Shown here: positions 42,966-63,143 of the stretch, piece by piece
How the letters are laid out: each line of letters starts with the position of its first letter
Position numbering within the stretch: the first letter of the stretch is position 1
NCBI GenBank assembly: GCA_025201805.1
Contig: MU619273.1
Span: forward strand, 165,329 to 229,328
Reading direction: 5' to 3'
Origin: Parasitella parasitica NRRL 2501
Lineage: Eukaryota > Fungi > Mucoromycota
Length of the DNA stretch: 64,000 bases
Notes under the pieces: model-generated
The model's input: only the letters and a program-made list of their open reading frames with translations
What the model was told of the DNA's origin: nothing
Database searches by the model: none
Program-made: the position numbers and the translations under genes

Positions 42966-44618
42966 ATGGCAATAATCTCTACTCTTCTGTCAGGATTTTC
43001 CATCGCTGACTTTATTTATAAGGCTTTCATGGCCCTTGTCTTCTATTGGGGTTTTCATCTTATATCCCAGATGGTAAGTCGCAGAGATGTTTGCGCGCAC
43101 AGACCTGATTGCCTAATATGCTGCAATAGCTCATCCCCAAGGACCCCAATGTTGTTCCTACTGTATTTTCTTGGGTCCCAATCATGGGCAATGCGGTTGA
43201 ATTTGGAAAGTGAGTGATATATAGATATATATATATGCTGTAATTCAATTAGTTTAACAAACTATCACATTAGGGATCCCATCAAATTTCTGCAAAGCTG
43301 CCAAAAAAAGTATGGCGATGTCTTTACCTTCCAGCTTTTGAACAAAAAGGTCACTGCTTGCTTGGGCCCTGATGGCAACCAGTTTGTATTCAATGCCAAC
43401 CAAAATGTTGCTTCTGCTGCTGCTGCTTATAACCATATGACCAAGTATGTCTTTGGCGACGATATTGTATTTGACGCTCCTCACAGCGTCTTTATGGAGC
43501 AAAAGAGATTCATCAAGGGCGGTTTGAATGTCGAGACTTTCCGTAAGGATGTTCCGCTTATCATTGAAGAGTGCCACATGTTTTTTGACAAGTTTGAAAA
43601 GTCTGGTATTGTGGACTCCTACAAGATGTTTGGCTCGCTCATCATCAATACGGCCTCTCGTGCTCTTCTTGGTCTGGAAATTCGTAATGCGCTCGATGAT
43701 GGCATTGCCCAACTCTACTACGACCTGGACCAAGGTTTCCGTCCTATTAATTTTATGTTTCCCAACCTGCCCCTCCCTGCTTATCGTAAACGCGATGAAG
43801 CTCGAGGAAAATTGGCTCATCTCTATGAAAAGATTATTGAAAACAGACACGCTGATACATCTGGAATTGTCCATAATGATCTTCTCCAGGCACTCATGGA
43901 TGCTCGATACAAAGACGGCTCTGCTCTTCCTAATCATCAAATTTGTGGCATCTTGACCGCTGCTCTTTTTGGGGGCCAACATACTTCGTCGACTACTTCT
44001 GCTTGGACTATTTTGGAACTTGCCTACCGTCCCGATGTTATTAAGGCTGCTCGTCAAGAGATGATTGAAAAGCTCGGTTCTCTTCAAGTCGAATTTACCT
44101 ACGATAATTTGGAAGAATTAACATTCTTGGAAGATATTGTTAGAGAAACTCTGCGACTTCATCCTCCTATTTTCAACATGATGCGTCGTGTTGTTGCTGA
44201 TAAAATGATTTATGAAAAGTCAGGTCTTGAGATCCCTAAGGGCAATTTCCTTTGCGCTGCTCCCGGTGTCACTCAAATCGATCCTGCTTACTTTCATAAT
44301 CCCATGAAATGGGAGCCCAAACGTTGGTCTGAGAAAACTGACCCTATCCATCAGCTTGAAATAGGCGACGATGCCAACATTGACTACGGTTTCGGCGCTG
44401 TTGGCATCTCCTCCCGCAGTCCTTTCCTTCCTTTCGGTGCTGGCCGTCATCGCTGTATTGGCGAAAAGTTTGGTTATTTGCAACTGAAGGCCATTATTGG
44501 TACATTTATCAAGAGATTTGATTTCGAAGGCCTGACTGAAAATGTTCCAAAGCCTGACTATACCTCTATGGTTGTTGTTCCCAAAGACAGTAGAATCCGC
44601 TTTACTCGCAGAGACTAA
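42966..44618 (+). CDS. CYP51: sterol 14-alpha-demethylase, Mucorales F5-type paralogue (3 exons)
   Basis: AYNHMTKYVFGDDIVFDAP, MEQKRF, GGQHTS, ETLR, heme motif PFGAGRHRCIGE. Confidence 0.96.
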
Positions 44619-44733: not shown

Positions 44734-45168
44734 TCAACTGTATGATTTTGTTGTTTCTGTGAGTGTTGAAGTGTTATTAAAGATGTACAGGTGCGCGAAA
44801 TACAACCCAGTCCCGATCAAGATCAGAATCATACTGAACCGAACAAACCCATAAACTAGACGATAAATCCACTTGAAAATGCCCATAATCATACAATAGA
44901 AGATGTACAAGATAACTAGCGACAAGAATATGCCCGTGATATTGGATTCGATGATCATTTGTGAGATCATACCATACAGCTGTCGAACAAAAGCAGGCGA
45001 GCTTGACAAAATATACGAAACAGCTGTTCTTGCTGTCGCCATAACTTGCTCCGGGGCAGGCAGAGGAATATTCGATTTTTGAAGATTCACATAGCAAAAT
45101 GTGTAGGCCTCTGAGATGAGTTGAAATGCTTGCAATGTTACGTTGAAAGAGTTGTTGAAATTATCCAT
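44734..45168 (-). CDS. small two-TM membrane protein, Apq12-like
   Basis: Two C-terminal hydrophobic helices joined by a basic amphipathic linker (FKWIYRLVYGFVRF), recalled as the Apq12 pattern. Confidence 0.55.
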   Translation of the reverse strand: MDNFNNSFNVTLQAFQLISEAYTFCYVNLQKSNIPLPAPEQVMATARTAVSYILSSSPAFVRQLYGMISQMIIESNITGIFLSLVILYIFYCMIMGIFKWIYRLVYGFVRFSMILILIGTGLYFAHLYIFNNTSTLTETTKSYS

Positions 45169-45225
45169 TCCTGGTGTCTGGAGAACAAAAAAAAAAAAAA
45201 AAAAAAAAAAAAAAGGAAGATTAAG

Positions 45226-45420
45226 GCCTGGCTTTTTTTTTTCTTTTCACGCTTTTGCCTGGCTTTTTTTTCTTTTCACGCTTTTGCCTGGCTTTTTTCT
45301 TTTCAGGATTGAAGCATGTTTGTAATTTCAAGAGAACAAGCAATTTGCCTATTTTATGCGGTACCGTATAATAAAGAAAATGCAGAGAAGTACACCAAGA
45401 CGATTGACGAAATGGAGGAT
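45226..45420 (+). repeat. left inverted-repeat arm (about 2.7 tandem copies of GCCTGGC(T)nCTTTTCACGCTTT, then 105 nt of coding sequence)
   Basis: 45316-45420 matches the reverse complement of 49864-49968 at 98/105 nt by manual alignment. Confidence 0.92.
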
Positions 45421-45546
45421 ATTACGATTTGTTACTCAGAAAATCCTAAACAACCATTTCTTTGTTCATTAAAATCAATGATTGCCAATCCATCAGAATA
45501 CAATGCAATTTTGAAGAATAACAGTCAAGAAAAAGAAGAGAGCTAA
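45316..45546 (+). CDS. 76-aa ORF starting in the left inverted repeat (MFVISREQ family)
   Basis: 33 of the first 35 residues are identical to the ORF in the right arm; differences are mostly synonymous. Confidence 0.7.
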   Translation: MFVISREQAICLFYAVPYNKENAEKYTKTIDEMEDITICYSENPKQPFLCSLKSMIANPSEYNAILKNNSQEKEES

Positions 45547-45592
45547 TAGTAATTTTAAATCGATGATAATAATACTTTATACAAAATAAAAA

Positions 45593-46299
45593 CTAGTTTT
45601 TAGACCTATGATACAAATTTTCCCGACTATCGAATTTGAATAAGGCTTTTGGCTCTATTAATTCTTCCTGGCAATTGATAACGTGAACTTGATTATCGTG
45701 AATAATGGTATCAATAATTATTTTTTGAATATTACTATTTTCACTAAAACCAAAAGTTAATTAATTGCTTTGTTTATAGTATGTTACATACCGCAGAAAC
45801 GCCTCTAAATCAGTAAAGTTGGTGGTGAGGCCCGCTGAATCTATTATAACCAAAGCTACTTTGTTTATTTTTTGAATATCTTGAAGTAGATCTGCAAAAA
45901 AGTCAGTATTATAGTAAATGAAAATTGTATGCTATTTAAGATATTAAATACCTTGTGCATTGCCATTGATACCTGATAGCTGATCAATAATCGCATTTTT
46001 TTTTTATATCTCTTTTTTTAAATGGTGTACCAGCATTACAGCTAACAGTGACATAAACCTTCTGCGCTAAGGACCTCTCTTTCAATCCAAGAACCATAGA
46101 TTGAAGGCATTTGGTCACTTTCTCGTTATCCGCAGTCGTTTTTGACTTTCTACAATAGCCAATAATAAAATATCCTTGTATTTTAAGATCCATTATATAT
46201 TGTTGGTATTGTATTGGTAGATTAACTATGTCTTCTATAAGTGCATCTACAACGCGATAATTGATAAGAAAAATAGAATTAATAATTTGTGCGTTAAAC
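45593..46299 (-). CDS. C-terminal part of a serine recombinase/resolvase-like protein (introns 45892-45951 and 45744-45791; 1-nt frameshift in the homopolymer at 45996-46005)
   Basis: FIIGYCRKS at 46143-46169 resembles the resolvase YxRxS motif. Correcting one base and splicing two GT-AG introns gives ...KRDIKKNAIIDQLSGINGNAQ|DLLQDIQKINKVALVIIDSAGLTTNFTDLEAFLR|ENSNIQKIIIDT...FDSRENLYHRSKN*. Confidence 0.6.
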
Positions 46300-46689
46300 N
46301 NNNNNNNNNNNNNNNNNNNNNNNNNNNNNNNNNNNNNNNNNNNNNNNNNNNNNNNNNNNNNNNNNNNNNNNNNNNNNNNNNNNNNNNNNNNNNNNNNNNN
46401 NNNNNNNNNNNNNNNNNNNNNNNNNNNNNNNNNNNNNNNNNNNNNNNNNNNNNNNNNNNNNNNNNNNNNNNNNNNNNNNNNNNNNNNNNNNNNNNNNNNN
46501 NNNNNNNNNNNNNNNNNNNNNNNNNNNNNNNNNNNNNNNNNNNNNNNNNNNNNNNNNNNNNNNNNNNNNNNNNNNNNNNNNNNNNNNNNNNNNNNNNNNN
46601 NNNNNNNNNNNNNNNNNNNNNNNNNNNNNNNNNNNNNNNNNNNNNNNNNNNNNNNNNNNNNNNNNNNNNNNNNNNNNNNNNNNNNNNNN
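46300..46689. other. assembly gap (390 N)
   Basis: Run of N. Confidence 1.
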
Positions 46690-49418
46690 TCGTTTGGAGA
46701 CATAGAGATCTTTTCAATTTCTTCGGAAGAAGGTTGAGGTTTTCTTTGTATGCTTGTCATCATTCCTAAATGGAGTATATTATCCAAATTTGGCTCTTTC
46801 CTTGGCATCTTATTAAGTTTGACATCCCATTTCATCAATTTCCTTCTATCGGAAACAAGTGTTGGTTCCGCTATGATGCTAGTTGAATTTACTTCCAATT
46901 CAGATTTTGTGCGTTTTGTTGATATTTCATTATTTTTGTGTTCATCGCATGAATTTAAATTGTAGGGTGGCAACTTGTTTTTAAGCGTGGGATATCCCGA
47001 TTTTGAGTTATCTGGCTCCAAGTTAGGGGTTATTTTATTTGTTATGTCTGCCGAAAGAGAATAATCGTTTTTCTTTCTCTTTGCAAAATTTAATTCGGTC
47101 GTCTTCCCCCCCTCAAAAGCATTATTTAACAAATTGCGCTCATGTGGAAACGATGGAACGGAAGAGAGAATCGAGGATTCGGATGAAATGAGATTAGACA
47201 CATGAAGAGGAAAGGTATGAAGAACTGAGGCTGAAGTATTACTGTGAAAATAATTGAATGAGGTAGTTGGACTACGAGTTGGTCTTGAAGAGGAAGAATT
47301 AGAAGTCGTGTCACGAAGAAGACGTCGATTAGAAGTCTCGGCATTATTAGCAAAAGCCTTTGTAAATATTCGCAGAAACGAGTTCAAAGTGGAATTATCG
47401 AAAATAGGACAACAAGAAGCAAAAAGAGAACGCGACGAATAGTTATCAAGAATAGTGTTATTAATAGAATTATTATCAATAAAATTACTGTTCGAATCAA
47501 TATCTACGAAGATGTTATTCCAGCTATCAAATTCAGGATCTTCTGGAGGAGGACCACGGGCAACACTAACGAGAAAATCGAATGTTACATCTATGACAGA
47601 GTCATCATCATCGTCTTCGTAAACGGAAGCAGGAGGAATGATTGGGTTAATGACTGTTGGAGCGTTGAAATTTACAACAGTTTCGGTCGGATGTTCCAAG
47701 CCATAGAAACTCAAGGCATCTTCATTGTTCATTGCATTGAGATCTGCAGCCGATTCCTCAACTATTGGTTGTAGCCATCCACCTGTTGGCTCGTTGTTGT
47801 AGGTAGAGTGATTCCAAGCATAGAAAATGTTATTGAACAATTGCGTCTCGTCTGCTTGGGGAAAAACCATTGAATTGTAGTCTTCTAACCACCATTGATC
47901 CAGATCAGAGGAAAGAAGGAACTCCTGGTATGGTGGCAAGGGCGAGTTGCTGGTAGGCGCGACTTCGGTGATGATAGGTGTAGTAGGTTCTAGATGCGTT
48001 TCCTCAATTGAAACAGTGGTGATGTCAGAGTAGGATGAAATTTGGGAGAAATTGAGAGAGTTTCGTACTAGGCTGTTTGATTCAAACCCGCTGGGGTAGT
48101 AACGTTTCAGCAAGGCTGCGACGTCTTGCGGACATCTGCGAGACAACGTACGGTAGATCGATTCAGTAACATGGAAGTACTTTTGATGACTTGTTACGAA
48201 AGTGCAGTGTCTATTAAGGAATGGGATCTGTCTACTGTCACCGAAAAGAATGATTTTTCCGTTCGGGTTCAATCGAGCGATCGCGGCATAGAGAGCACCA
48301 GCGTGAACCATGAGAGCCTCGTCAACAAGGACGTTGTTACAACCATCTGTGAACACAGCGCGACGGTGCATAAGATATGAATCGATAGTGCGGATGTTTG
48401 ATGCTAATTGTTGCTGCAAGGCTGCGTTGTCATCATCTTTAGATGAGAGTAACTGGAAAATCTCTCTGCGCGTTTCCTCTGCCGTGCTGGACGTCTCGCA
48501 AAGTACGATATCTCCGGGCTTGTAAGTGTGCACGATCTCGTACGTTTTCCCGGCGCCGGGTACACCTTCGATAAGAGTTGCGGAGAAAGGGCGGTAGAAA
48601 AACTTCGGATGTAAGTGTGACACGGCTGACGAAATACTGCGAGCGTTGAATACTTCGAAAGAACCGCAGACAAAGACGATGTCAGAACGGGGCTGGTTCT
48701 TTGGTTCGACGAACACCAGACCTTCTGGTCCCTTCTTGTCGCGCAAGGAGACACCGCGAGGCACCCCGAGCTTGACAAATCGCCCCTGCATGTCCATAGC
48801 TATAGAGTAAGTCGCAGAAGTTTTGATGTAGGATGAAGAGACGTAAGCTAACATAGAGTCGGCCACTGTTCCATCCGGGAGAAGTCCGTCGGAATTAGGT
48901 CTAGAAACTCGAAGGAAGTTCGGGTTATCTTTGCCGTTTTGGTACAGGACTAGTTTGTCCATAGGCTTCGGTTTGCCGTTGACAGTGCAATAATCAAAAA
49001 CTTGTTTAGCTTGGTTCTCGACACATTGCGCTTCGTAGGCCTTGTACTTAGCGTACTCTACCGTAGCGGCAATCGCAGCGGCAGGCAGTTTAGCACGGAA
49101 GGCAGGGTTGAGCTGTTGGCAACGCACTTCCAACTCGCATGGTAAATCGCTCGGGATGGTATCAGCGAGTTTGAAACGGTGAACCGGTGTTCCGTCGGGT
49201 TCCGTTGGAGTACGGTTGTCAAAGGTACGCCAGTCAGCAGACTGGTTGATGAGTTGGTCTTCGGCGACCACGTCCGACGACTTCCGAACGTTGGTGGATT
49301 CGGTAGCGTCGGGAAGGGACTCGTCGTCATCATCAGTAGAGGAAGTACTCTGTCCCTGATTATCTAATAAGGCCGTAGATCCGTAAAATTGATCTTGATG
49401 TTGGGCTGGAATCCTCAT
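46690..49418 (-). CDS. intronless ORF of about 909 codons (ATG 49418, runs into the gap) containing a viral SF1 RNA helicase fragment plus low-complexity extensions
   Basis: No stop codon between 49418 and the gap, per the ORF track. Confidence 0.75.
48030..49350 (-). other. endogenous viral element: tobamo/virga-like (+)ssRNA virus replicase fragment (inter-domain linker plus helicase motifs I-IV)
   Basis: TLIEGVPGAGKTYEI (48543-48566 core), IRTIDSYLM, VLVDEALMVHAG, LFGDSRQIPFLNR, TLSRRCPQDV are collinear with tobamovirus helicase motifs; visibly higher GC/CpG than the flanks; no introns. Confidence 0.92.
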
Positions 49419-49968
49419 GTTTTCTTTTAACACTTGCAGTTGTGAAATTCAACTTTTGTGTTCTACACCAATTTGTGAATTTTGAAAAGTTATCTTCTTT
49501 AAACAACGAAGTGTATTCCCAGACCTGTGATAATATTGTATTCATTGATAAAGCTTTACATTCATACAAAACAGACTCTGGATCTTCTGAAAGATAAGCT
49601 ATATCCAGGAATTGTTTTAATTGTGGAGTAGTTTCTATAAAATGAAAAAAGTCAACCAGTGGAAGATAAAAGCATTAACTGTAACAAGTACCAATTTCTA
49701 TTTTGCGATTTCCGACTTCTTGATTGCTTTGGCCAATTTCTTCATCAGTTTTTTCTTGTCGGCTTCCAGATGGGTATAAATGAATATCAAATGAGTTGGC
49801 ATAAATTATTCTTGTACAAAGAAGTCTTGGTTTTTTCTGGTTTTTTGTATAGCAGACGTCGACATCCTCCATTTCATCAATCTTCTTTGTGTACTTTTCT
49901 GCATTTTCTTTATTATATGGTATAGCATAAAATAGGCAAATTGCTTGTTCTCTTGAAATTACAAACAT
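49360..49968 (-). CDS. 2-exon MFVISREQ-family ORF starting in the right inverted repeat (intron about 49635-49691); possibly the 5' part of the resolvase-like gene
   Basis: MFVISREQ...RKIEI|ETTPQLKQFLDIAYLSEDPESVLYECK...FTNWCRTQKLNFTTASVKRKHED...YGLIR* splices in frame through GTACTT...TTATAG. Confidence 0.7.
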
Positions 49969-50004
49969 GTTTAAAGCGTGAAAAGAAAAAAAAAGCCAGG
50001 CAAA
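49864..50004 (-). repeat. right inverted-repeat arm (one copy of the GCCTGGC...CACGCTTT motif plus 105 nt of coding sequence)
   Basis: Reverse complement of the left arm. Confidence 0.92.
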
Positions 50005-50430
50005 TTTACGCGCGTCAAGAAAAAAGCTTGTTTGTGTCAATGAATCAAAAAGGTCTGTGTGACAACCTGCACTCGAGAAAACGTATGAATTCTTGTGATT
50101 TCACTTAATTTCATGTACTCGATGACTAGAGATTAAAGAATATCTATTACTGGAAGCCAAAAAAAAAAAAAAAGGGTTGCTTCTAACGAATCTAATAATT
50201 GCTAATATCTTATCAATGGTAACTTTCGCTGCAGACAAGTAAGCAAAGTAAATCTATTCATGTTGATTTGGTACCATTTATTGACATCGAAATAATATTT
50301 TATATAATGATTTATCATCATTCAAACCTAATCAAACTTCAAATGGTCCCCTGGACCCTTTTATATACATACGTCGCTACTTTCTAAATTATAGACACTG
50401 GGCTAGGCTTGACCATAATTAGCGGTTTTT

Positions 50431-50465
<35 letters not shown>

Positions 50466-52453
50466 TTTTTTTTTTTTTTTTCATTTTTTTGCAGAATAGA
50501 CTCCTAGTCAAAAATGTCTTTTCTTCAGTCGCGAGATTTTTTCTTAATAAGGTTTATGAAGTTGGCACCATTAAATACAAAATTCCTGTAGTAAGCAAAA
50601 CATATTGGATGCATAGGGTATGCTATATTAATAAAATCTGGAGATAACGTTATGAAAAAAATACAAACAGAGTTACAGCATAGTCCAATACTCTTGAGAA
50701 AACGAGAGCAAATTTTTTCCATTAGCTTATGGTTTCAAAAGAATAGTTAGCCAATCGCGCTGGTATATCAAAACTTATAGCAATTTAATAATGAAATCAT
50801 TTCCGTTTATAATTGATTTGGCGTACTGTGTAGAGTGTAGTATCGCTTCTTTTCACAGTAGTACCAGCGCCATGTACTTTCAATATGATACCTTTTCTGG
50901 GCCCCTGAAAATGTCGAGTTCTTGGAAACAGATCTGCCGTACAATATAATTAAAGGCTCCTGCATTTTCCTATAATGCTGTCTCTCGTTTTGACACTGAT
51001 AGAGCAGATTCCTTACTCCTATTTTGTGGCGATAACCTGGTTTAGCTTAATCAGAGGGTTATTGTTGCTTGGATTCAGGGGTCAATATGTGTAGATCATG
51101 TATTAATTATGAGTGGGCATTGACCAGATAACTTTTAGGCACGTATTTTTCATGTATAGAACAACTTGTTTAGAATTTACAAAAGCCCAATCACCAGGGA
51201 AATTGAATATAGCTATTGCTATAAAATCTAAAGAGGGTGACACGGTTGAAGGAATGTCAAATTAGAAAACAACCATTATAAAACGAAAGAATATATGACA
51301 GACAGAGCTTGTATCAGAGAAAAGCCTCCTGCTTTGAATAAATCACAAAAACCTGCTTCAATACCGTTGTCTTCCTACGCCCATCTCTGTAAAACTAACA
51401 TTGCATTTATAGAAGTTAAAACCAAAAGATGTACAAGTGAAACGTGCTTTCCTTCGTAACCACTCGGAGCAAAAACCAAAGCTAACGCCTAAAAATGTAC
51501 AGTTTGCTTATTCTCACTCCTGTGTTTATCGATATTTATTTAATAAATGCATAAAGCATCAAAAAACCTGTTTGCATTCGTTCATGTTAACAAGATGATA
51601 CTGTACAGAGCAAAGATGCAAAACTCACAACATGATATGTGTCCATAATTGTTGCAGATGTAGGAAATAGATGAATGATAAAATGCAAGGTGCATAGTCA
51701 ATTATCTATACGATACAGTACATGAGATAGCTGATCTAGACTGGAATCAAGTATGCATTTTGATCACTACTCAAAAATACTTTAAAAATGCCATTGGAGT
51801 ATTCAGATATGATGTATCAATAGCATCCGATTATGAATCGAATGATTTATACAAAAAGTACTATATGGATTATAGTGAAGCAGCTATTCCGCAGAATCAA
51901 CAGTATTGGAAAATAGATGGAAGGAAATGATGCGTAGTAAGGCTTCCTCAATCTAATCATCAGATGAGTAAACCACAACAAACGCTCTCCTAGTCAGACT
52001 TTCCGAATTCATATTTTTGCACAAGAATCATTAGTTAAGCATGAATCAGATAGAGATTGTAACTTTTAAAAAAGAAATAGCAAGTAGCTTTTGTGCCCAT
52101 GGCAAAGAATCTGACGAGCATTTGTCGTTTAGCATGGTAGAGCAATTACCTTCACAGCCACTTCCTCAGCTGTAAAAGATGAGCGTTGGAGGTATCACAA
52201 ATCAATAAAATGTGTTTGTATGTACGACTTGAACCAATCTGTAAAATAAAATATGGGATTTGTGTTGCCAAAAATCAAGATTTCGGCTTGATAGATAAAG
52301 TAAACAACTTTTTTTTTTTTATTGTTTGTTCGTTTGCAAATATAAATGCATTCAAACGTTTTTTTTTTAATTGACAAAAGCGACACTTCAGGAGAAGAAG
52401 CCATTTTTATTAAATATAGACGAAAAAACTGGTTTTTTTTCTTTATACACATG

Positions 52454-61500: not shown

Positions 61501-63143
61501 TATAAGGACAGCCTGCTTGAGCTGTTCAATAAACTCACTTGCAATAATAATAACTCAAATGAAATTCGTGCAAAGATTAAAAAAAAGGTAAGTTTTAACT
61601 GTTAACTTTCTTTAGTTTCTACGTTATATTATTTGCTGTTACTATGGGAATCTATATCGATTTAAAAAATGGTATACAATGAGTTAATATTGAAAAGCAT
61701 ACTGATGCATTAACTCTTCTCCTTACGATCTTTTATTTAGAAATACACTTAAGCCTCGTATCCCAAAGTAAAGATCGATCTAATGTTTCGTGGAATATAT
61801 TCGTTTCCGAGATGCGATCATTAATGCTTTCGAGATATGATAACACGCCTATGAGTGACTATAAAGCCGTTTGGAAGCAAGCGTTTAAGAACGCTGCTAA
61901 TAGCTTATCTTATTCCATTGAATCGAACGAACAAGAAGATACATGGAATGAGGAAATCATTGATGCCCTCAAAGAAACAAAAACTTCAGAATCGAACTTT
62001 GATGAATCTTGTCATAAATTATGTACCTCGACTTCATCACTATTATACCAAAAAAAATTGTTACCAGTTGACTATTCGAACATGTCTGAAGTTTTTTCTA
62101 AACTTACAAAGAAGTGGAAATTAAAATCTGGGAGAATGGTAGAAGATGTTGTCTTTAAAGCTTCGAAAGAATTCATTGTAGAACAGTAAATACCTTGAAT
62201 TTTTATTTATATTACTTTATTTGTTTTTCAGTAACTAACACTGGTTTAGTCCTGCTCATTCTTTTATATTTAATACAAAAGATCCAGCTTGGAAAGAAGC
62301 CTTCTCACAATCTGAGTTTGATGAAATAGAGGCTGCAGGAAACATCTTCCAATTCAACAAGCCGTTCCCTTCTGACTTACAAAACATCATACTCAAACTG
62401 AATAAAAAGGTAAACTCAAAGCATGAGTTGTACTACACATCTACTTACCTTATGTTTTAAAAGTCTAACTTTAGGGACATCTATGATGCAGTTGCCACTG
62501 TTGAAGCTCACCCAATTGATAATCCAGACAAATTCTGGTTAAAGCAAAGCATTTTAAACTATGCAATGCTGTTTATAGATAATGAAGTTCTATTACCATC
62601 AGAGACGGAACAAGATTTACTTGACGATGTATTCGGTTTTATAAAAACAAGCTGTAGACTTAGTGGAACTAAAGCTTATGGGTAAGAACATTCTATTGTT
62701 TGTACTTTGTTTAAACAATTAATTTGACTTATATGCTTTAATAGCGCTAAACAAAGTCAATCATCAAGTGAATGTAAAAACTCAACAAGATCAATAGGTT
62801 CTTTATCAAAAGTTCAACGGAAGCAGTCGGCTGAAAATGCTGATTTAAGCTTTAAATATATTTCTCATGAACTTTTCTGTCTCGAGATTGGCCTCAAGGA
62901 TCATGGCCCAAACGATACCAAAGAATTGAATGAAAGTTCAATTAAAATACCATTAATGATGAAAAACTTCTATTTACATCTTATTTCTCAATATAAAATG
63001 AATCCAAATGGAATCAAAATAATGGGTATTATTATTAGTGGTAAGAAAAAGAAAATCAAAACTGGATAGTGTAAAATCAGGCAATGCTTTCATGGACAAC
63101 AAAAAAATCGTTTTTTTTAAAAAAAAAAAAAAAAAAAAAAGTC

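Follow-up and report, generated by a model that had tools for sequence, protein, structure and literature searches.

The genome of Parasitella parasitica contains an endogenous 1.3-kb fragment of the replicase gene of a virga-like RNA virus, carried on the minus strand and joined on both sides to repeats that likely belong to an LTR retrotransposon. The window analysed is a 64,000-nt stretch of strain NRRL 2501 (GCA_025201805.1, contig MU619273.1, positions 165,329-229,328, forward strand), and all coordinates below refer to it.

Organization of the chimeric locus

A minus-strand frame without a stop codon runs from 49448 to an assembly gap at 46689, and encodes 909 residues from a methionine at 49418. 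This chimeric open reading frame of at least 909 codons (46692-49418, minus strand) comprises 25 codons of flank and terminus, 440 viral codons and 444 retroelement codons before it enters the gap. The virus-derived segment (48025-49343, minus strand), present in about one copy per genome, includes an acidic linker, an accessory domain and helicase motifs I to IV. It is bordered on one side by a 39-nt piece of a high-copy terminus that is likely the end of an LTR (49344-49382), and on the other by a multicopy repeat in the same open frame (46690-48024, minus strand) that likely corresponds to the spacer following the protease in a Ty3/Gypsy pol gene. The whole insertion lies between the right half (49382-50176) and the left half (45226-46299) of an outer element of about two copies, and its far end is hidden by the gap of 390 N (46300-46689). 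An earlier inspection of the letters without database searches, referred to here as the sequence-only reading, had placed an uninterrupted viral segment at 48030-49350. The absence of stops and frameshifts holds, and these limits fall no more than 10 nt from those given by the read contigs; the frame does not end at 48030 and continues into the retrotransposon-like repeat. This retrotransposon context, which the sequence-only reading missed, is the informative part of the locus.

The viral segment encodes a truncated helicase

Four helicase motifs, all in one minus-strand frame (48120-48566), had been recognized before and are confirmed: I (GVPGAGKT, 48566-48543), II (DEALM, 48323-48309), III (GDSRQIP, 48242-48222) and IV (SRRCPQDV, 48143-48120). 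The Pfam family Viral_helicase1 (PF01443), which the sequence-only reading had proposed as a check, matches residues 282-469 over profile positions 2-163 of 228 with an E-value of 4.3e-21 and 76.2 bits, above its curated cut-off of 21 bits. A HMMER search of 1.84 billion representatives with a 473-residue query returned 587 matches at E ≤0.001, the best being 38% identical. Among the 150 matches listed of these 587, none passes query residue 470. Thirty of the 150 were scanned for domains, and all 30 carry Viral_helicase1; it is accompanied by RdRP_2 or a viral methyltransferase in 18 of them, and the remaining 12 are fragments no longer than 600 residues. No relative of the viral fragment was found in IMG/VR, and a word-index search with residues 60-470 against proteins of 499-1591 residues returned nothing. 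In one 359-residue match, P0014, an internal piece of an RdRp (244-333) is attached directly to a truncated viral helicase (profile positions 2-156); this protein could be a further case of a viral sequence that is defective, or endogenous and rearranged.

The segment stops short of a complete helicase. When ten viral relatives were compared with the window by tblastn, homology was restricted to 49058-48018, and no methyltransferase or RdRp was detected near the viral segment. The junction with the repeat lies 37 residues past motif IV, where relatives have motif V at 66-91 and motif VI at 97-122 residues past IV, spacings that derive from 77 matches to motif patterns among 150 relatives. Motifs V and VI of the set I-VI are thus missing. 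Judged by its motifs and profile match, the fragment derives from the viral SF1 helicase family (PF01443) as an incomplete member. Motif VI is the source of the arginine finger in SF1 enzymes; because it has been lost together with motif V, the truncated helicase is likely inactive.

The accessory region noted upstream of the helicase is also present. The strings VEYAKY (49061-49044) and IVFVCGSFEVFN (48680-48645) lie in frame on the minus strand, and a structure model of residues 111-466 (pLDDT 87.6) reaches TM values of up to 0.71 in alignments of about 355 columns with virga-like replicases. This agreement of the predicted fold supports the accessory region as part of a virga-like replicase. 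When residues 25-245 were compared on their own with the collected relatives, there was no match (best E 0.44); their support comes from extended alignments to the relatives P0040 and P0004, and from the fold.

A cellular SF1 helicase (Upf1, Dna2, Pif1 or RecD) or a Helitron helicase was considered and rejected, since sequence and fold both match viral proteins first. The clusters nearest to the viral part by Atlas features are generic AAA/Pif1 helicases (0.83-0.86, lead level only), which would favour a cellular origin. Against this, every one of the 30 scanned matches carries the viral domain, and the best PDB fold match of the model is the helicase of ToMV (E 4e-14), far above Upf1 (1e-8) and Dna2 (5e-8). 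The four PDB sequence matches at E ≤0.1 are likewise all viral, with the helicase of ToMV (3vkw) at the top (E 2.3e-13). The outcome that the sequence-only reading had named as fatal to its proposal, best matches to cellular or Helitron helicases, was not what we observed.

Affinities of the donor virus and of the host

The PF01443 match, the viral relatives and the viral fold agree with the virga-like, Martellivirales-type replicase origin proposed earlier. The more specific proposal of a tobamovirus-like origin was not borne out, as the fragment falls in no supported clade of either tree. It stands in no starred clade of a quick tree of 148 rows, which omits three cluster members and three matches covering fewer than 140 residues. 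A careful tree of 50 of the 148 rows again placed it in no starred clade. Few rows are named, and the taxon-defining RdRp is absent. On these alignments, the fragment is virga-like and not demonstrably tobamo-like. Because no supported clade contains it, and with a best-scoring relative only 38% identical, we take the donor virus to represent an unsampled lineage, which would have infected Parasitella parasitica. The Mucorales host suggested before agrees with the Parasitella homologue of the adjoining repeat, which points to a host that is likely a member of the Mucoraceae close to Parasitella.

The fragment is present in genomic DNA

Seven of 16 listed sequencing runs, from six studies, contain 75-83% of the words of 46700-50100. 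The nine others contain almost none, yet absence from these is unsupported because two of them come from the same samples as word-containing runs. Seven of the listed runs (X1, X2, X4, X5, X7, X10 and X11) were examined by contig mapping, with run types (DNA or RNA) that are automated guesses. The four DNA runs X1, X2, X4 and X5, each from a different study, share an identical 1379-nt contig (47995-49373; 0 differences), although the runs with this contig may represent a single strain and one of them may be the source of the window. In X1 and X4, it reaches 1.06-1.14 times the depth of the contig carrying the host CYP51 gene. The identical contig and its host-like depth establish the presence of the segment in genomic DNA that the sequence-only reading had assumed.

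This viral contig stops 30 letters into each flanking repeat, one letter short of the rule used for a bridge, as contigs would at branch points of the graph. The joint at 48024 is fully bridged only by a contig of the RNA-like run X7; among the records listed, no contig bridges 49382, a joint supported by the window's own assembly alone. This joint, together with an assembly gap 1.3 kb away, would suit an explanation without any integration, in which the locus would result from mis-assembly or viral contamination, or the helicase would be an SF1 enzyme of cellular or Helitron origin. We consider such an explanation very improbable: the same contig was recovered from four DNA runs of four studies, each time with its ends 30 letters into the two flanking repeats, and the helicase matches are viral, as described above. 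Found in host DNA and joined to host sequence, the fragment is a non-retroviral endogenous viral element.

The two remaining runs add little. X11, which bears the same species label, leaves the viral segment and 49384-49600 uncovered but contains the terminus family; this hints at a lineage restriction of the insert and is not evidence for one. X10 gives no information, as its 788 C>T places point to bisulfite conversion.

The adjoining repeat resembles a Ty3/Gypsy pol gene

Below 48024, the viral frame continues in phase for 444 codons into a repeat whose contig depth is 3.8-7.6 times that of the viral contig, or about 4-8 copies with contig depth as a rough guide. Other copies of the repeat diverge from the window exactly at 48024, a branch point of the read contigs; the similarity to viral proteins extends to 48018-48024, and that to the retroelement begins at 48014. 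Residues 469-772 share 60% identity with P0189, a hypothetical protein of Parasitella parasitica that was the one match among 250 candidates in a search with the tryptophan-rich acidic block of residues 490-650; this block is 70% identical in Parasitella. The first 90 residues of P0189 match RVP_2 (E 6e-5, above the curated cut-off), and its N-terminus matches Asp_protease_2, gag-asp_proteas and the Ty3 peptidase more weakly, below the cut-off. Its Atlas neighbours are retroviral proteases and Ty3 Gag-Pol (0.86, lead level only). Because this homologue starts with a retroviral aspartyl protease, as expected of Ty3/Gypsy elements, the repeat is likely the spacer that lies downstream of the protease in a pol gene of this type. 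Where P0189 has its protease, the window has the viral segment, which would occupy the position expected of gag and protease.

No reverse transcriptase, RNase H or integrase is visible in the repeat up to the gap; these would lie in or beyond 46300-46689. Pfam detected nothing in the repeat frame or in the pieces of the outer element except one match at E 0.07, a word-index search with residues 466-909 against proteins of 499-1591 residues returned nothing, and JGI metagenomes contained no relative of the repeat protein. The post-protease region comprises at least 444 residues without any Pfam family, which is long for a protease-to-RT spacer. Because the repeat contig extends 1726 nt past 46690 in X1 and X4, the assembly gap may be undersized or this copy of the pol repeat truncated.

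A high-copy terminus and an interrupted outer element

The other neighbour of the viral segment belongs to a much larger family. In X2, a 45-nt contig carrying the terminus has a depth of 1827 versus 42.6 for the viral contig, a ratio of about 43, and other copies of the terminus are flanked by varied sequences on both sides. It is likely an LTR end. The copy at this locus is the only one in the window, and it lacks about 6 letters of the stretch common to other copies. Rfam gave no match in 45000-50600, the terminus found no match in JGI metagenomes, and none of the contigs listed links it to the pol repeat. Depths of the viral segment, internal repeat and terminus stand at about 1 : 4-8 : 43, ratios which, as a rough guide, fit internal copies plus many solo LTRs.

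The insertion interrupts the outer element. A contig of X1 and X4 connects 46299 with 49382 across 41 intervening letters and corresponds to the empty form of this element, whose depth is 1.5-1.9 times that of the viral contig (about two copies). The outer element has a loose end at 50176 in X1, and the outer 250 nt of its left half are an inverted copy (81%) of 49813-50025. Its long inverted arms include coding-like sequence, and spliced joints on both strands were observed in X7 (45706-45779, 45901-45980, 45891-45952 and 49634-49692).

Two other features of the window were noted. A 168-residue open frame (61683-62189, minus strand) presumably resembles a repeated Mucorales gene family. The CYP51 gene (43218-44618, plus strand) ends about 600 nt from the outer element and, when aligned to a yeast enzyme, has Phe at a conserved Tyr position and Ala in helix I. 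These are the two features of the Mucorales F5 isoform, which has been linked to intrinsic short-tailed azole resistance (PMC5698289).

Composition, age and transcription of the insert

The viral segment was said to be visibly richer in GC and CpG than host DNA, and a sliding-window comparison agrees. Its GC content is 0.503 and its CpG observed/expected ratio 1.27, values reached by none of 565 other 1319-nt windows (maxima 0.483 and 1.04, respectively). Its GC3 is 0.54, versus 0.37-0.49 in seven host open reading frames. The repeat copy differs from the collapsed copies of X1 at 17 of 1313 nt (about 1.3%), a figure that comes from collapsed contigs and dates the repeat family rather than the capture. 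Considering substitutions only, a neutral frame of 438 codons would remain free of stops with a probability of 0.50-0.61 at 1.3% divergence, and of at most 0.02 at 10%. Across the four DNA runs, no variation was found in the viral contig (1379 nt). The open frame therefore suggests a young insert and is no evidence of selection. Of the two causes offered before for the intact frame, a recent integration is thus favoured by the unameliorated composition, the 0 differences and the repeat divergence of about 1.3%, and the insertion is likely recent; selection is not, as an open frame is expected about half of the time and the helicase is truncated.

None of the word-containing runs is on record as RNA. 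X7, which is RNA by guess, shows GT..AG joints at the introns of the host CYP51 gene. It contains a 1680-nt contig (47488-49166) that crosses the virus-pol junction with 0 differences and 0 gaps; contigs carry no strand, start or level. The claim that the segment is intronless holds over 48025-49166, where this contig aligns without gaps. X7 has no cover at 49167-49343, and the DNA runs also lack cover at 50574-51674. Translation of the full chimera is doubtful because the methionine at 49418 sits out of frame inside the outer element's own open reading frame (49360-49674). A plus-strand GT..AG joint at 47212-47265, antisense to the pol-like frame, was also observed in X7; the contig that carries it is likely from another copy of the repeat because it has 4 differences from the window.

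These data bear on the possibility that the chimera has been kept by selection, either as a source of small RNAs for the RNAi that targets Gypsy elements or because a truncated helicase disturbs viral replication or silencing. The window copy's own sequence occurs unbroken across the junction in an RNA-like run, the antisense joint suggests antisense RNA in the repeat family, Gypsy elements of Mucor lusitanicus yield small RNAs (PMC9963178), and the frame is open for 909 codons. We nevertheless find this explanation improbable. The RNA comes from one run without strand or level, translation is doubtful, there is no variation on which selection could be tested, and the helicase has lost its motifs V and VI, in contrast to insect retrotransposon helicases considered to be under selection, in which all six motifs are present (PMC5563155). 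The viral segment is likely a non-functional passenger now.

Origin of the chimera

An RNA virus of this type has no DNA stage, and some reverse transcriptase is therefore required. The viral piece has a repeat on either side, and its frame runs in the same direction as pol. We think it probable that a Gypsy reverse transcriptase switched template onto viral RNA and that the chimeric cDNA integrated as a passenger. The enzyme would have copied pol back to the post-protease spacer, and then jumped onto a co-packaged viral RNA for 1.3 kb. The product would have been joined to a short LTR end, so that the viral piece replaces most of the LTR, gag and protease, and the chimeric cDNA would have entered the two-copy host element. 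Since the terminus is shortened, a joint made by repair seems more likely at that end than a clean integrase product. The frame would be open because the event is young, an in-frame joint having a chance of one in three. Chimeric cDNAs between viruses and LTR retrotransposons are known in insects (PMC6338049).

Alternatively, viral cDNA made by any cellular reverse transcriptase could have been end-joined into a break in a resident Gypsy copy whose 5' part was deleted, the retroelement then being the landing site and not the mechanism. A terminus that falls short of the shared end, unlike a clean integrase product, joints that are both blunt as far as visible, and a locus that is a nest of repeats would all suit such a patch. 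It would, however, take two events, a Gypsy insertion followed by a viral patch with a large deletion, and would leave to chance (one in six) that the viral frame shares the polarity and phase of pol. No intact Gypsy copy was seen at the site in the examined runs, whose contig tables would show one poorly. We regard this alternative as unlikely, though deserving more weight than selection, and retain template switching by a Gypsy reverse transcriptase as the preferred explanation.

Relation to known endogenous viral sequences

Like virga-like viral replicases, the fragment has the accessory domain followed by motifs I-IV, with 30-39% identity over the helicase and the same predicted fold; unlike them, the window lacks the methyltransferase, the RdRp and motifs V-VI. 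Within the Mucorales, Rhizopus arrhizus proteins similar to the RdRP of RmVV1 have been proposed to result from endogenization (PMC11351042), which involves the same virus group and host order. In the accessible text of that report, these are annotated RdRp-like proteins given without flanks or mechanism, whereas the present locus is a helicase with retroelement junctions; the mechanism of endogenization is called not well understood there (PMC11351042). Endogenous Durnavirales-like RdRp genes of Mortierellaceae and Phycomyces (PMC7482067, PMC12548735) are also expressed non-retroviral RNA-virus sequences in Mucoromycota genomes. As described in those sources, they are old and conserved and derive from the RdRp of dsRNA-type viruses, whereas the fragment looks recent and derives from the helicase of a plus-strand virus.

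Further parallels come from insects, in which viral SF1 helicases occur in TRAS and Jockey LINEs, and viral SF1 helicase fusions of Aedes and Leptopilina lie upstream of Ty1/Copia RNase H or integrase (PMC5563155). The chimera shares with these fusions a virga-like helicase in frame with a retrotransposon open reading frame, transcription and, in the LTR cases, a position upstream of pol domains. It differs from them in its fungal host, its likely Gypsy partner, its single copy and its truncation, the LINE-borne helicases keeping all six motifs and persisting across lineages. We found no report of a fungal virus-retrotransposon junction in the literature covered, where subscription journals were mostly outside the scope and supplements may list such loci. 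What is new is the junction of a viral sequence with a likely LTR retrotransposon in a fungus, each half being known separately.

At this locus, the two joints formed in a young capture event with an LTR retrotransposon, a route described in insects, have likely survived, and the locus records a virga-like lineage whose best-scoring match among 1.84 billion representatives is 38% identical. If the insert is a passenger only, its value is that of a clear fossil. More speculatively, and in our opinion with small probability, the locus could be a fungal counterpart of insect EVE immunity at its start, in which the transcript of a Gypsy-made chimera is diced with its family and gives rise to heritable antiviral small RNAs against an unsampled virga-like virus. 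Small RNAs and H3K9 methylation have been reported on Mucor Gypsy elements (PMC9963178). In a fungal group with tractable RNAi genetics, both an endogenization route through Gypsy reverse transcriptase and antiviral small RNAs become testable in the Mucorales.
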